Positions 1-32,000 of a stretch of DNA of 32,000 nt are shown piece after piece; the stretch's first letter is position 1, and each line of letters opens with the position of its first letter. Under the pieces are notes generated by a model. The model worked only from the letters and a program-made list of their open reading frames with translations, was not told the DNA's origin and ran no database searches. Source of the DNA: Candidatus Saccharimonadota bacterium (GTDB lineage: Bacteria > Patescibacteriota > Gracilibacteria > BD1-5 > UBA2023); NCBI GenBank assembly GCA_046350815.1, contig JAXLZO010000001.1:510001-542000 (forward strand). The letters are read 5' to 3'. A program made the position numbers and the translations under genes.

Positions 1-51
1 AGAATGGCTCTAAGATTTGACCTCCTATGGTAGCTCGAAATGTTGATTAAA

Positions 52-882
52 CTAGATCAATGAGATGCGATTTTGTGTTGCTATTTTATCGACTTCTTTG
101 GCGAGCATGATAATATTCTCCTCTTTTCATTTTTCATCTCATATGAGAGTGCATGCCTCACACTGATCTAGTTTTTGTACTGCGATGACACTGAGAGACG
201 TGAGTGCAGTACTGATAGCTATATATTCTGGAGCGTTTGGGTGAATTTTATCTCTCTGAAATTGGATAATTTTTTGGATTGCTTCGGAGATCTTTTGGAT
301 TTTTGGATTGGGGTGATTTCTGAGATGTTCTTTAAATCGATCTTTGAGTAGTTGCATCCCAAGACTGGAGATATTGCGAGCTTTTTCAGCTCTATTTGCC
401 AAGCTTTCCGCTTTTTTGATCACTGCTCATTTCTCGATGATCTTTAGTGCTTTATCTAGCACGGCAGTTATGCCTAGTACTTTTATCACGATCTCGATCG
501 TTCATTGCCCGAATTCATATGCATTTTCTGGGATATGTGTCAAACTCTTCCATAGATTGACTATCAAACTCTTCCAATCGATAGATTGGATCTTTTGTAT
601 AATTTCCTGGACTTTTATTTCACCCAGAGCAAGCGCGGCACCTACCTTGTCGATGATGGCATCTACCGAACCTTTAGCAAAATTTTGTGTAAATGTATTA
701 GAGGGATCGTATCACTCCTTTCCACCTTTTACTCCAATGTATGAGTACGCCTGTTTTCGACACTCCAAAACACACCGATCTATCCGATCTTGCAGAGATT
801 TTTCTTGATCTTGTGCAGACTCTGGAATCGGTTTTTGTTTTTTTGGAGCGAAATTAGTAGCACTATCACCAAATGATTCCAT
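52..882 (-). CDS. hypothetical protein (276 aa under code 25)
   Basis: One continuous frame from ATG 880-882 to TAG 52-54. It joins track ORF 139..423 to flanking pieces through 5 in-frame TGA (127, 139, 427, 502, 712). I walked every codon and found no TAA/TAG. No motif recognised. Confidence 0.5.
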
Positions 883-942
883 ACATTATCTGCAGATTTT
901 ATCTTGCTGATAATGTATCATATGTTTTTGCTGTTGGCAAAT

Positions 943-1731
943 CTACCACTCCACGACGACAGGGCAATGATCTGATCCCATCATATCACTGAGATAGGTT
1001 ACTTTTGGTTTTGTTTTCTCTACAAATTTATTGTCTGCCCACCATGCATCGATCCTCCATCAGACATTTCTATCTCGAGATTTGGTGACCGGATCCCACC
1101 ATGAATACACATCTGATATGGTTGGATTCGCGGCTCTCCATACATCTTGATGACCGAGCTCTACCATACTATCGAGCCAAGATCGTTCGAGTGGATGAAA
1201 TCCTATTTTCCCATCATTTTCTTTTGGTCGAGCAAGATCAATTGGGTGATGAGCACAATTGATATCTCCTCACCAAATGACATGTTCACCACGAGCTTGG
1301 TAAATATTTGTTTGTGCTCTAAGACACTCATAGAAAGCGAGTTTATGTTGCCATGCTTCCTCGGATTTGCCACCATTTGGGAAGTAGATTCCATAGATGT
1401 GTGTGATTCCGATGTCAAGATTGAGTATTGCATGAATAATTCTTCATTCGTTCTCGACGGGATTATCGGGAAGATCATGATCGACTGATATTACTTGTGA
1501 TGCGATGCGTTCGTGAATCCAAAGTCCTACACCGCTGTATCATGCTTTTTCCGCTGAATGATAGATCGCTTTATATGGTGCTGGATGGAGTAATTCTTCT
1601 GAGAGCTGATCGGATTTTGCCTTGATTTCCTGCATAAAAATCAGATCCATATCGAGAGGATAGATATCAGAAATATGTCATTTGCGCTCGATGGCTCGTA
1701 GACCATTGACATTCCAAGAGAGGATTTTCAT
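943..1731 (-). CDS. xthA: exodeoxyribonuclease III / AP endonuclease (EEP fold)
   Basis: ATG at 1729-1731, TAG at 943-945, 262 aa. Translation MKILSWNVNGLRAIERK..IWGGDINCAHHPIDLARPKENDGKIGFHP..MGSDHCPVVVEW carries the ExoIII signatures WNVNGLRA, GD-N-AH and SDHCPV. 5 in-frame TGA, so it is absent as a single ORF in the standard-code track. Confidence 0.9.
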
Positions 1732-1739
1732 AGTGGGAA

Positions 1740-2663
1740 TTATTGAGAAATGTGTGCAAAAATATCTGGAGCAAGCTCTCGCAGAAGAATAGCCATTCGC
1801 ATAAAGACACCAGTCTGCACTTGGTCGAAATATCGAGCCTGTGGAAGCGAATCAATCTCGTGAGGTATCTCAGCAAGACGAGGGAGCGGATGCATGATGA
1901 TCGCATTATCTTTCAGAAGTGCTGCACGTTCAGGTGTGAGAGTAAAATCCGAGAAAGCACTATCGAAATTTGTATCTTCCGGAAGTCGCTCTTTTTGTAA
2001 TCGTGTCATATAGAGTACATCGATTTCCTTGAGAACACTTTCTTCAAGGCTTTCAATAATCCTCGTTGTAGAGGAGATGTATTTATCTGGTATTTGTAGT
2101 TCCTGAGGTGACGCAAATATAAGATCTACATTCGGAAGGAGAGAGAGGAGACTCGAGAGAGAATGGGTAGTTCGCCCATATTTGAGATCGCCAGCGATCA
2201 TAACCTTGAGATTCACTCGTTCAAAGAGATCTGGAAAGCTCTCATAAATAGTCGCAAGATCAAGGAGTGCCTGAGTTGGATGTTCACCATTCCCATCTCC
2301 AGCATTTATAACCGGTACGCTCGCATAGGTATCAAGGAGAAGAGCATCTCACTGCTGTGTAGATCGCAGAGCAATAATATCAGCAAAGTATGAGACGACT
2401 CGTGCCGTATCCGAGAGATCTTCTCATTTTGCACGAGAGCTGAAATGAATATTCGATTCACTCACCACTTGTCCACCGAGACGAAGCATCGCTGACTCGA
2501 ATGAAAGCCTCGTTCGAGTCGATGGTTCATAGAAGAGGGTTGCAAGAATCTTCCCATGAAGTGATTCCGAGAGGTCTCTTGCATTGGTTCGTACATATCG
2601 GTAAGCCCTGAGAAACTGGTGTATCTCATCGAGTGCAAGGTTGGATGTGGAGATGAGCGACAT
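1740..2663 (-). CDS. pyrB: aspartate carbamoyltransferase catalytic subunit
   Basis: Joins track ORFs 2424..2663 and 1740..2216 through 2 TGA. Motifs present: STRTR (carbamoyl-phosphate binding), HPTQ, HPLPR. 307 aa, TAA stop at 1740-1742. Confidence 0.93.
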
Positions 2664-29369: not shown

Positions 29370-30512
29370 TTACTGCTTCTTATGCATCCATTGATAGTAT
29401 TCGCCAATTCCATAGAGTGATCAGCAGATAACAAAGAGTGTATTTTTTGCTCAGAGAGCTTCTCTATGAATTGCTTCAGGATTGATAATGTTGACTCATC
29501 AGAATTGACTACTCAATAGTATTGGATCCATTGTGAGTTTGTGTTGCATTCCGAGAATTCGAAAATTTCATAGTGGAGCAAGTTGTGCAAACATTTCTTG
29601 TGGATCTTTACCGTCTTTGAGACTTACGACAAATTCAATATGATCAAATCGATCGCGAATTGATGCAATATATTTTGCAAGCACAGTTATACCATCGAGA
29701 TTATGAGCTCCATCGACGAGTATATTTTGGGCTATCCACTCACAACGTCCTCGATGGGTGACGTGAAGAAGTCATTTTTTGATATTTTCAGCTTCAATCT
29801 TCAGAAGAAGTCCTATTTGATAGGCAAGTTGAGCATTGGTAATTTGATGTGCACCCGCAAGATTTACCTGAACATCTCATTGATATGATCGAATAATCGG
29901 AGCATTAAGAATTTCGGCACGATTTTGGATAGAGTGAAAATCACAATCAGTCACGAGAGGTATTCATGACTTAATAATACCAGCCTTTTCTCCAGCAATT
30001 GCTTCGAGAGTATAACCAAGAAGATCCATATGATCCCAGCCAATGGAAGTAATACAGGTGATGGATGGATGAGTGAGGATATTTGTTGCATCGAGTCTCC
30101 CACCAAGCCCTACTTCAATTACGGCATATTCACACTTTGTATCACGAAAATAGAGAAATGCAGCAATGGTTTTTGCTTCAAAAAATGTTGTCTGTGGTTG
30201 ATATGCAAGGATTTGCTCAAAATACTCAGCAAGTTTTTCATGTGGAATATATCCTTCATTCGTTTCAATCGACTCTGTAATATCTACGAGATATGGAGAG
30301 GTGAAGACTCATACCTTGTATCCTGCTTCCTTAAGGATTGCAAAAGTCATCTGGCTCACTGATCATTTTCCATTTGTCCCGGCTATATGGATGGTTTTAT
30401 AGCTCTCTTGAGGATTTCAAAAATACTCTGCCAACTTACGAACACGATCGAGAGAATAATCGGTGGTGATTCTGGTATTTGATATAAGTTGTGAAATAAG
30501 ATCTTGTAGCAT
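29370..30512 (-). CDS. folC: folylpolyglutamate synthase / dihydrofolate synthase (Mur ligase family)
   Basis: Codon-walked from ATG 30510-30512 to TAA 29370-29372, with at least 12 TGA. Motifs: HIAGTNGK-G-SVS P-loop, VIEVGLGGRLDATN, ITSIGWDHMDLLG, AGEKAGIIK, LVDGAHN. Essentially invisible in the standard-code track. Confidence 0.88.
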
Positions 30513-30560
30513 TATTTATTTTTTGCAATGTAGTATAAATACATCACTCTATTTATCCAT

Positions 30561-30586
30561 AAAATCGCTCAAAATTGAGCGATTTT
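30561..30586 (-). terminator. hairpin between the 30609 gene and folC
   Basis: aaaatcgctc / aaaatt / gagcgatttt, a perfect 10-bp stem with A/T arms. Confidence 0.5.
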
Positions 30587-30608
30587 ATCATTGATATTAT
30601 AACGGGTA

Positions 30609-31979
30609 TTATGATATCTTTTCAGTAATGTCTTTTGCGAGTTGATTATATTGTCCAATAAAAAGCTTTTTTCGAATACTTAATTTTTCTCAAATTGAGA
30701 GTTTATATTCTCAACTAGCAGCTATATTTCTGATTGCAGAGATATATGTAATATACTCTCGTGCTTTGCCAGATATTTTTGGATTGATATTATTGAGCAT
30801 CTCCCATGGCTTGTTGTATTCTCCAAAATTGGAGATGAGGATAGACAATGACTCTTGCAGGAGATTCTGATTATGAGTTTCAAGAGCACTCTGTATGAGA
30901 GACTCAAAACACCAAAGAGGAGTTTGAGTTGGATATCGTTTCATACATTTTTGATACTCTTCGATCGATTTCGCAGCATCACCTAACTCTCGGTAGAGTT
31001 TACCGAGTAAAAGAGTCTCTTGAAAAGTTCCTGTTGGTTTTGCAAGGATCGCATCTCTATACGCTTGATTCTTTTCTTTTGACAAGCCAATTCCTTGATA
31101 TTGAGTATGTTCCAATATATTCTGCGACCAAAGTTCTATTTTAGCCATCTTTGCATTCTCATTGCCATAGTGCGCATGGTTATTAAGAATTGATTGCATG
31201 ATGCCGGATTCTGGAATGGTCGCTTCATAGTCATACGACCATTGTGAGTTATCAAGATAGCTAAATCATTGAAAATCAAGCTCCGTTTTATTAGTATCCG
31301 GATTGATTTTACGAGATGCAATAGGAATAAGCTCTTGGAGGTTAGTCGGATCTGCGAGATAATCCTTTCCGTCTATCTGGAGTGTGAGAGCAATATGTCC
31401 ATTTCATTGAGCATCAGTTTTATTCATTATAATGGTCGAGTGAGCTATATCGAGCTCTTCGAGGAATCCATGCATCAATGATACCTTTCCGACACACAGC
31501 ATTTGTTTTGTCTCCAGCATTTTTCCAGGATCTTGAGCTTCTTGAGTCATCACCCATGGATATTCGGTACGAATCGTCTTGAGTATCTGGCTTGCTGCCT
31601 GTAGCTGCAGTTGTCGCTTTTGTGATTCAGAGTTCATCTCACGAAGCTGTCGCTTGTATCCTGCAATATTGAGAAGTGAATAAAGCCTTGGAGTATCGAG
31701 AAATGATTGATAATTGGATGGTGAGAAAGAATCATTTGCACCATTTGCAATCACACTTGATGGATTGATTTTTTCGAGTTTAGCAATTCGCTCTCGATCT
31801 TTCGTGGTTAAAAGAGCGATATTTTGAGTTGTCTCTTGATTTCATTGTTCAAAGAGGGCAGTCTGAAGATGGAGGTCGACTTTTTCAGTAACGGTGTCAT
31901 CAAGCTTCGTAATAGCCTCTTGCGTTTTAATGGTTACTCCATTTTGTTCGATATGATAATATGCTACACGATTCTCCAT
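30609..31979 (-). CDS. hypothetical protein (456 aa) with possible transglutaminase-like Cys-His-Asp core
   Basis: ATG 31977-31979 preceded by aaggagg SD. Joins track ORFs 31404..31754 and 30711..31199 plus extensions through 5 TGA (codon-walked), TAA at 30609-30611. The segment MLCVGKVSLMHGFLEELDIAHSTII...GHIALTLQIDGKDYLADPTN resembles the C...H...D arrangement of transglutaminase-like peptidases. This is a weak assignment made by eye. Confidence 0.55.
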
Positions 31980-32000
31980 GACTTCCTCCTTTTTGATAAG

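Follow-up and report, generated by a model that had tools for sequence, protein, structure and literature searches.

The window analyzed here, a stretch of 32,000 bases (contig JAXLZO010000001.1, positions 510,001 to 542,000; 40.3% GC), carries genes whose reading frames are repeatedly crossed by the codon TGA. We put at about 0.95 the probability that it is chromosomal DNA of an uncultured member of the Gracilibacteria (BD1-5, within the Patescibacteria or candidate phyla radiation, CPR) using NCBI translation table 25, the code in which UGA specifies glycine, with UAA and UAG as stops. Sequence comparison shows that UGA is read through in frame and stands for glycine. For 71 of the 118 in-frame TGA codons in our gene models, a comparison with standard-code sequences was possible; Gly was the commonest residue at 44 of these and Trp at one. 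TGA also alternates with GGN in the DNA of relatives, and both observations agree with the table 25 interpretation proposed in a prior sequence-only reading of this DNA. The reassignment is already known in this lineage, having been described for SR1 (Campbell 2013) and Gracilibacteria (Rinke 2013), both as cited in PMC8629427, and for Gracilibacteria by Hanke 2014 (PMC4032931).

In-frame TGA codons and gene models

Under code 11, the window breaks into 57 stop-to-stop open reading frames (ORFs) of at least 100 amino acids (aa), the longest being 374 aa. A stop-to-stop scan that counts TGA as a sense codon brings out frames of 785 to 827 aa. The gene set used throughout consists of 22 models taken from TGA-as-sense frames plus clpP, which was found by a scan of the gaps, giving 23 genes. 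TGA occurs in frame in 19 of them, accounting for 118 of 8,400 codons (1.4%). In-frame TAA and TAG are absent from all 23, although the two off-frames hold 182 and 246. The genes end in TAA (16) or TAG (7) and never in TGA, their frames are interrupted by TGA only, and they show no frameshifts. This combination, conserved genes with in-frame UGA and with UAA and UAG as sole terminators, is that of code 25.

The earlier description of genes that are broken by TGA and yet form single frames ending in TAA or TAG thus holds for 19 of the 23 models. Its figure of at least 25 such genes was not reproduced: beyond the 19 confident ones we find a few unconfirmed hypothetical ORFs (8433 to 9092, -; 28888 to 29349, -; 18759 to 19076, -; and 9804 to 10169, +). 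The TGA counts it gave for hsdR (12 TGAs; 20390 to 22873, +), hsdMS (25; 22886 to 25351, +), and the gene we call pilin-LRR (16; 12066 to 14423, -) were exact on recounting. Also located in the sequence were all of the motifs VILL-TGA-DLINK-TGA-P, GTNGK-TGA-S, DPACGTA-TGA-FL, QAK-TGA-SH, and GMKA-TGA-D. A leucine-rich repeat (LRR) motif with TGA is present as well, although it reads NI-TGA-xxAF and not SI-TGA-xxAF as had been stated.

Several Pfam domains cross TGA codons while being matched over nearly their full profile length. These include Exo_endo_phos (positions 1 to 225 of 225), N6_Mtase (4 to 304 of 311), ResIII (4 to 163 of 164), and tRNA-synt_1b (3 to 285 of 292). In addition, two independent public assemblies in Logan, SRR26348422 and SRR26348423, carry identical hsdR-hsdMS(-hicA) genes, and the window's 37 to 38 TGAs in the compared genes all lie opposite TGA in both. 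Because the same TGAs recur in two independent assemblies, the in-frame TGAs are not assembly errors.

The gene murC (3589 to 4998, +; UDP-N-acetylmuramate-L-alanine ligase, 469 aa, three Mur ligase domains, five TGAs) ends in GAG TGA TAA (4993 to 4998), with TGA immediately before the terminator, and homologues stop aligning before this point. This last TGA may encode a terminal Gly or may be a relic of the ancestral stop.

Residues at TGA positions

In all homology queries, TGA was written as a neutral X. For HsdMS, a fused type I methylase-specificity protein of 821 aa with an N6_Mtase and two Methylase_S domains, 120 matches were listed. Eleven of these were abnormally rich in Trp, being evident code 4 translations (UGA as Trp) of other recoded genomes, and were removed, which left 109 standard-code homologues from groups including Arcobacteraceae, Ferruginibacter, and Bacteroidales. 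Glycine held the majority in 16 of these proteins' 25 TGA columns and made up 52% of all residues opposite TGA, compared with 0.4% for Trp. At three columns Gly was present in 109/109 homologues, among them the one in methyltransferase motif I (DPACGTA-x-F). Scored with the substitution profile of the alignment, the summed mean log-likelihood was -51.9 for Gly, -73.6 for Asn as the next best residue, and -145.7 for Trp, the worst fit of the 20 amino acids.

HsdR (827 aa; ResIII/HSDR_N), the R subunit of the type I restriction enzyme, was compared in the same way. Of 120 matches listed, 23 had the high-Trp signature, leaving 97 homologues with normal Trp content. Glycine was the majority at 10 of 12 TGA columns and constituted 69% of the residues there, with Trp at 0%. 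The log-likelihood was -15.8 for Gly, -37.8 for Ser, and -74.1 for Trp, which was again among the worst. The sequence-only reading had proposed tabulating the consensus residue at TGA columns and had held that UGA as Trp would not fit them; both tabulations come out for Gly and show no enrichment for Trp.

Seven proteins (FolC, XthA, TyrRS, MurC, the ApaH-like phosphatase, FKBP, and PyrB) were compared with PDB chains of standard-code organisms, and Gly was found at about 41 of 71 residues opposite TGA. For exodeoxyribonuclease III, encoded by xthA (943 to 1731, -; 262 aa, five TGAs, Exo_endo_phos), four of the five TGAs lie opposite Gly in PDB 3g91, including that of the NV-G-WR motif, and one (codon 154) lies opposite Cys. 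In this motif, spelled NV-TGA-TGG-RID in the window, the conserved Trp adjoining the TGA is encoded by TGG. Both TGAs of the aspartate carbamoyltransferase gene pyrB (1740 to 2663, -; 307 aa, OTCace_N and OTCace) are opposite Gly in 2rgw and 6ypo. Folylpolyglutamate synthase, FolC (29370 to 30512, -; 380 aa, Mur_ligase_M), has 11 TGAs, including that of the P-loop GTNGK-TGA-S; codons 32, 68, and 249 align with Gly in 3/3 PDB chains and codon 50 in 2/3. In the ApaH/PrpE-like metallophosphatase (9076 to 9729, +; 217 aa, five TGAs, Metallophos), both TGAs of the GDxxxxGP motif are opposite Gly in 3/3 PDB matches. For the FKBP/SlyD-type peptidyl-prolyl isomerase lipoprotein (7537 to 8145, +; 202 aa, five TGAs, FKBP_C), GMKA-TGA-D lies opposite GREE-G-E of Thermus thermophilus SlyD. 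MurC codon 46 is Gly in 3/3 PDB MurC chains, and its remaining TGAs fall in variable stretches. For the HicA toxin (25890 to 26126, -; 78 aa), whose Pfam match (HicA_toxin, E = 1.2e-6) extends across its single TGA in K-TGA-SH, a PDB sequence search gave no match; we take this residue to be the Gly of K-G-SH from the Pfam match and general knowledge of HicA.

Evidence free of any annotation came from the raw DNA of relatives. Two syntenic contigs, L083 and L084, were reached via TyrRS and are 89.6% identical to the window in TyrRS, 90% in ProRS, and 94.7% in ClpP; a third, L085, is distant. Across these three contigs, TGAs of the window lie opposite TGA or GGN and never opposite TGG, and the TGAs of the relatives lie opposite TGA, GGA, or GGT of the window. 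We also took 80 proS loci from GTDB species genomes. At proS codon 204 the CPR loci have GGN in 35 cases and TGA in 9, and Gly is encoded in 36/36 standard-code, Clostridia-type loci. Over the 80 genes there are 44 columns holding any TGA, and Gly is dominant in recoded and TGA-free sequences alike. Synteny around these loci was limited to proS itself, a few LRR matches, and single hisS and hsdR matches.

Internal repeats offered a further comparison. LRR1 (5116 to 7500, +; 794 aa, seven TGAs, LRR_5 with E = 3.7e-98) is a BspA-type LRR surface protein, and pilin-LRR (785 aa, N_methyl and LRR_5) joins a type IV pilin-like N terminus to BspA-type LRRs. The two are large paralogues with a common C-terminal tail, QTNS.xNGTVYG...F.(R/K).KL.NYV. 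In 20 LRR units of these proteins, the residue after (S/N)I is Gly in 15, TGA in 3, and Ala and Glu in 1 each, and at the tails TF-TGA-DQTNS of LRR1 stands opposite AF-GGN-VQTNS of its paralogue. Judged by this pattern, TGA occupies the Gly position of the LRR repeat.

Composition of the 23 genes was also informative. Codons of the GGN family alone would give a Gly content of 5.8%, which rises to 7.2% with TGA added. Tryptophan amounts to 1.0% from TGG alone and would reach 2.4% under code 4, an implausible value. TGA makes up about one fifth of all Gly codons (0.19), and this share is very uneven: it is 0/15 in clpP and 0/20 in the gene for a secreted protein (27255 to 27917, +), 0.03 to 0.05 in hisS and proS, and 0.35 to 0.40 in folC and hsdMS (40% in hsdMS). 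Highly expressed genes may avoid UGA, which would account for the unevenness.

The discordant TyrRS codon and rival readings of UGA

It is also important to point out the observations that weigh against UGA as Gly. About one-third of TGA columns vary in their residues (N, S, A, K, E, D) and therefore are individually non-discriminating; among the comparable codons, those with neither Gly nor Trp as the commonest residue are loop-type positions of this kind. In HsdMS, TGA columns are slightly less conserved for Gly than GGN columns (Gly majority at 16 of 25 versus 28 of 37). A tRNA with anticodon UCA was not found in the window with ARAGORN or Rfam, or in the 80 related proS loci. Finally, codon 125 of the tyrosyl-tRNA synthetase gene tyrS (17523 to 18749, -; 408 aa, five TGAs, tRNA-synt_1b) is a TGA (18375 to 18377, -; YNSE-TGA-LD) at a position that is Trp in 3/3 aligned solved TyrRS structures. 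This TGA is kept in L083 and L084 and in one Gracilibacteria genome at 57.7% TyrRS identity.

Among 120 Gracilibacteria TyrRS sequences, the codon 125 column holds Trp in 80, Gly in 39, and Ala in 1. Nine of them are demonstrable code 4 translations, with Trp in otherwise invariant Gly columns, and show Gly at this column; their codons here are therefore genuine GGN, so that Gly is apparently tolerated at the site in at least nine Gracilibacteria. Other Gracilibacteria carry TGG at this position. The TyrRS gene of the window contains no TGG codon. The simplest reading of these sequences is that codon 125 is a lineage-specific site variable between Trp and Gly, having changed along the path TGG to TGA to GGN.

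Codon 125 gives no support to UGA as Trp, and it is the sole observation that makes ambiguous decoding conceivable. UGA would then be mainly Gly, in an ambiguous or context-dependent manner, with a near-cognate tRNA-Trp(CCA) inserting Trp at some sites such as this one. In its favor are the conservation of TGA at a Trp site in the window and in relatives whose TyrRS is 89.6% and 57.7% identical, and the literature, which raises possible UGA/UGG ambiguity in these lineages through wobble at U34 (PMC8629427). On the other side, this is one site among 71 comparable ones, and its column holds GGN in at least nine Gracilibacteria and TGG in others. We consider this reading very unlikely. A more specific form, in which UGA is naturally ambiguous so that part of the TyrRS pool receives Trp via tRNA-Trp(CCA) and the use of UGA at Trp sites is selected, is a very unlikely conjecture.

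A complete reassignment of UGA to Trp, which is translation table 4 and is known from Mycoplasmatales and certain insect endosymbionts, strikes us as scarcely credible. It gives uninterrupted ORFs just as table 25 does, two public products (P0001 and P0241) are code 4 translations of the same genes, and codon 125 lies opposite a conserved Trp. However, even codon 125 is Gly, encoded by real GGN, in the nine relatives that were translated in the code 4 style. The remaining evidence given above runs the same way: Trp is close to absent opposite TGA and fits those columns far worse than Gly in both HsdMS and HsdR, TGA writes the invariant Gly of methyltransferase motif I, the P-loop, and GDxxxxGP, a conserved Trp beside TGA uses TGG in xthA, TGG is never opposite TGA in relatives' DNA, and the Trp content would be excessive.

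A negligible probability attaches to the idea that the TGAs are real stops in pseudogenes, sequence errors, selenocysteine codons, or sites of programmed read-through: code 11 does fragment the genes and xthA codon 154 does lie opposite Cys, but the interruptions are never TAA or TAG and come without frameshifts, they affect essential genes such as those for aminoacyl-tRNA synthetases, murC, and folC, they fall at functionally invariant Gly positions, and those of the compared genes recur in two independent assemblies. Selenocysteine and programmed read-through were rejected given 118 sites, just one of them opposite Cys, and no selenocysteine insertion sequence in the window, where Rfam yields five tRNAs and no other RNA family. 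Pseudogenes and sequencing errors were likewise rejected on the stop pattern together with the Gly-specific columns, and code 4 was rejected on the evidence of the preceding paragraph.

Source lineage, gene content, and annotation

Prolyl-tRNA synthetase, encoded by proS (15256 to 16725, +; 489 aa, archaeal/eukaryote-like type, two TGAs, recognized by Pfam), and TyrRS were used to place the organism. The best ProRS loci in GTDB species genomes are 70 to 79% identical. Many of them bear the title 'Candidatus Gracilibacteria bacterium', and the remainder that of 'Patescibacteria group bacterium' or 'Candidatus Peribacteria'. ProRS sequences of standard-code Peribacteria and Clostridia are about 40 to 44% identical. 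Among the best 120 TyrRS matches, all named ones are Ca. Gracilibacteria or Patescibacteria group except one ('MAG TPA: [bacterium]'). By these best hits the source organism is assigned to the Gracilibacteria, which agrees with the earlier proposal of a CPR-type source from a lineage with UGA as Gly: the closest relatives by ProRS and TyrRS are metagenome-assembled genomes (MAGs) of Gracilibacteria. No species representative is identical, and the closest has 79% ProRS identity, so that the lineage is known but the species is probably undescribed.

A second reassignment was considered, since a Codetta screen predicted CGA and/or CGG as Trp in Absconditabacteria and possibly in some Gracilibacteria (PMC8629427). 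In the window, Arg is most often encoded by CGA (130 per 10,000 codons), and CGG occurs at 23 per 10,000. CGA is found at invariant Arg positions, namely, pyrB STRTR, hisS GGGRYD, and hsdR motif VI. The 19 CGG codons correspond to Arg or Lys in homologues (Arg or Lys in the HsdMS columns), and the CGG column of proS is Arg in 36/36 standard-code and 43/43 CPR loci. With CGA at invariant Arg positions and CGG opposite Arg or Lys, recoding of the Absconditabacteria type is rejected. CGA and CGG behave as Arg, and therefore there is no second reassignment here.

The window resembles Gracilibacteria with code 25 (BD1-5/GN02) in having UGA at Gly positions, no stops besides TAA and TAG, a GC content (40%) inside the reported range of 0.21 to 0.53, Gracilibacteria MAGs as nearest ProRS and TyrRS relatives, and CGA and CGG as Arg; there are no differences of substance. 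Absconditabacteria (SR1), a sister lineage in the same CPR clade, share the UGA-to-Gly reassignment, but CGA and CGG are Arg in the window, and the named homologues are Gracilibacteria rather than SR1. Code 4 organisms (Mycoplasmatales, Entomoplasmatales, and insect endosymbionts) also use UGA as sense, with ORF continuity equally restored, but the TGA columns of the window are Gly and not Trp. Peribacteria (Peribacterales, of the same class) have ProRS of the same type with 41 to 44% identity, and proS genes such as those of L041, L046, L048, and L051 are free of in-frame TGA; UGA is a stop there, whereas the window is recoded.

On the model we favor for decoding in this organism, a dedicated tRNA-Gly with anticodon UCA would decode UGA, release factor 2 (RF2; encoded by prfB) would be absent, and CGA and CGG remain Arg codons. 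The first two steps are drawn from the literature on the lineage, in which tRNA-Gly(UCA) is expected to be present and RF2 absent (PMC8629427; PMC4032931). The tRNAs of the window form a single array at 19813 to 20284 (+), identified with ARAGORN and Rfam as Gly(UCC), Ile(GAU), Pro(UGG), Glu(UUC), and Phe(GAA). Identity elements of tRNA-Gly are G1:C72, C2:G71, G3:C70, and U73. A pattern scan of metagenomes for Gly-type tRNA(UCA) yielded 12 contigs, none of them from this organism.

Two of these contigs deserve mention. L096 (Ga0208460_10000166) is a metagenome contig of 29% GC with a Gly-type tRNA(UCA) at 11751 to 11823. Its ORFs at 632 to 1105 (-), 1093 to 1749 (-), 1722 to 3197 (-), and 145 to 639 (-) are extremely rich in in-frame TGA (16 in 158 aa and 29 in 492 aa), with a Walker A motif spelled MV-TGA-TGA-IPSA-TGA-KTT and an ORF N terminus that, by eye, we take to be reminiscent of a small terminase subunit. 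It may be a code 25 phage or mobile element with its own UGA-decoding tRNA. L090 (Ga0209488_10042658; 62% GC) has a tRNA at 1 to 74 (-) that resembles tRNA-Gly(UCC) but has the anticodon UCA. This contig apparently uses the standard code, as an ORF for a SpoU-type methyltransferase seems to be terminated by TGA. There are two readings of the L090 tRNA: a natural opal suppressor that inserts glycine, or an error in the sequence.

The rest of the gene content is as follows. Histidyl-tRNA synthetase is encoded by hisS (10649 to 12001, +; 450 aa, one TGA, tRNA-synt_His and HGTP_anticodon), and the ClpP protease by clpP (19083 to 19655, -; 190 aa, no TGA, CLP_protease with E = 6e-83). An HtpX-type M48 protease (27959 to 28870, -; 303 aa, two TGAs, Peptidase_M48 with E = 3.5e-37) is also present, as is an HxlR-type transcription regulator (14827 to 15156, +; 109 aa, two TGAs, HxlR with E = 1.9e-19) with 94% identity to its counterparts in L083 and L084. 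Among the hypothetical proteins, unk1 (52 to 882, -; 276 aa) has five TGAs, a TAG stop, and no significant Pfam family, and its frame is open only if TGA is sense. At the other end of the window, unk2 (30609 to 31979, -; 456 aa, five TGAs) has weak tetratricopeptide repeat (TPR) matches. A 112-aa hypothetical protein (26394 to 26732, +; no TGA) has a 72% identical ORF in L083. The secreted protein without TGA mentioned above is 220 aa long, rich in Gly, Thr, and Ser, and without a recognized family, and an exact look-up for it yielded zero contigs. A small hypothetical protein (17138 to 17530, -; 130 aa, two TGAs), whose gene shares 8 nucleotides with the 3' end of tyrS, had been labeled ParB-like. 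We dropped this label, as Pfam gave no match at E ≤ 1, whether TGA was written as X or as G; a DGLHR-like motif is the sole feature reminiscent of the ParB/Srx fold.

Pilin-LRR has an N-terminal methylation motif of the type IV pilin kind (PF07963) joined to its LRRs, and it might serve an episymbiotic CPR cell as an adhesin displayed on pili. The type I restriction-modification module (20390 to 26126) consists of a separate HsdR and the single HsdMS fusion of a methylase with two specificity (target recognition) domains. After hsdMS, on the opposite strand, lie hicA and, downstream of it, a gene for a NikA-like ribbon-helix-helix protein (25440 to 25787, -; 115 aa, no TGA, PF21983 with E = 2.6e-9). 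The closest homologues of the module, at 50 to 68% identity, are spread over many phyla, and yet TGA is denser in it than anywhere else in the window.

Ten further ORFs in the gaps were scanned for families, and clpP alone was recognizable. The gaps at 2664 to 3588 (26 to 28% GC) and 8146 to 9075 and the gap of about 0.9 kb between the phosphatase gene and hisS are without a recognizable gene. In the last of these, a G+C-rich hairpin (10123 to 10185) with an A-run on one side and a T-run on the other resembles a terminator that acts in both directions; an Rfam search of the 9.7- to 10.7-kb gap at a relaxed threshold gave a sub-threshold terminator-like hairpin as its sole match.

The choice of code has direct consequences for annotation. 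The sequence-only reading had warned that standard-code annotation of this DNA would be largely wrong, and the problem extends to any code other than table 25: table 11 breaks 19 of 23 genes, and the Logan gene calls of identical DNA (L081 and L082, from SRR26348422 and SRR26348423; window positions 20390 to 26732) use code 4, with Trp at every TGA. P0001, for example, is the HsdMS of the window with Trp at all 25 TGA codons. The high-Trp signature was seen in 11/120 HsdMS, 23/120 HsdR, and about half of the TyrRS matches listed, and mistranslated CPR proteins are therefore common in the protein collection.

Table 4 yields full-length proteins, yet it places Trp for Gly at 1.4% of positions, and its errors reach the catalytic motifs, including the P-loop, methyltransferase motif I, and metallophosphatase motif II. 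Code 4 products in large databases, such as P0001, P0241, and many high-Trp relatives, distort alignments, hidden Markov models, and predicted structures of CPR proteins. The window provides a small, clean, homologue-based example of how Gly can be told from Trp at a reassigned UGA.

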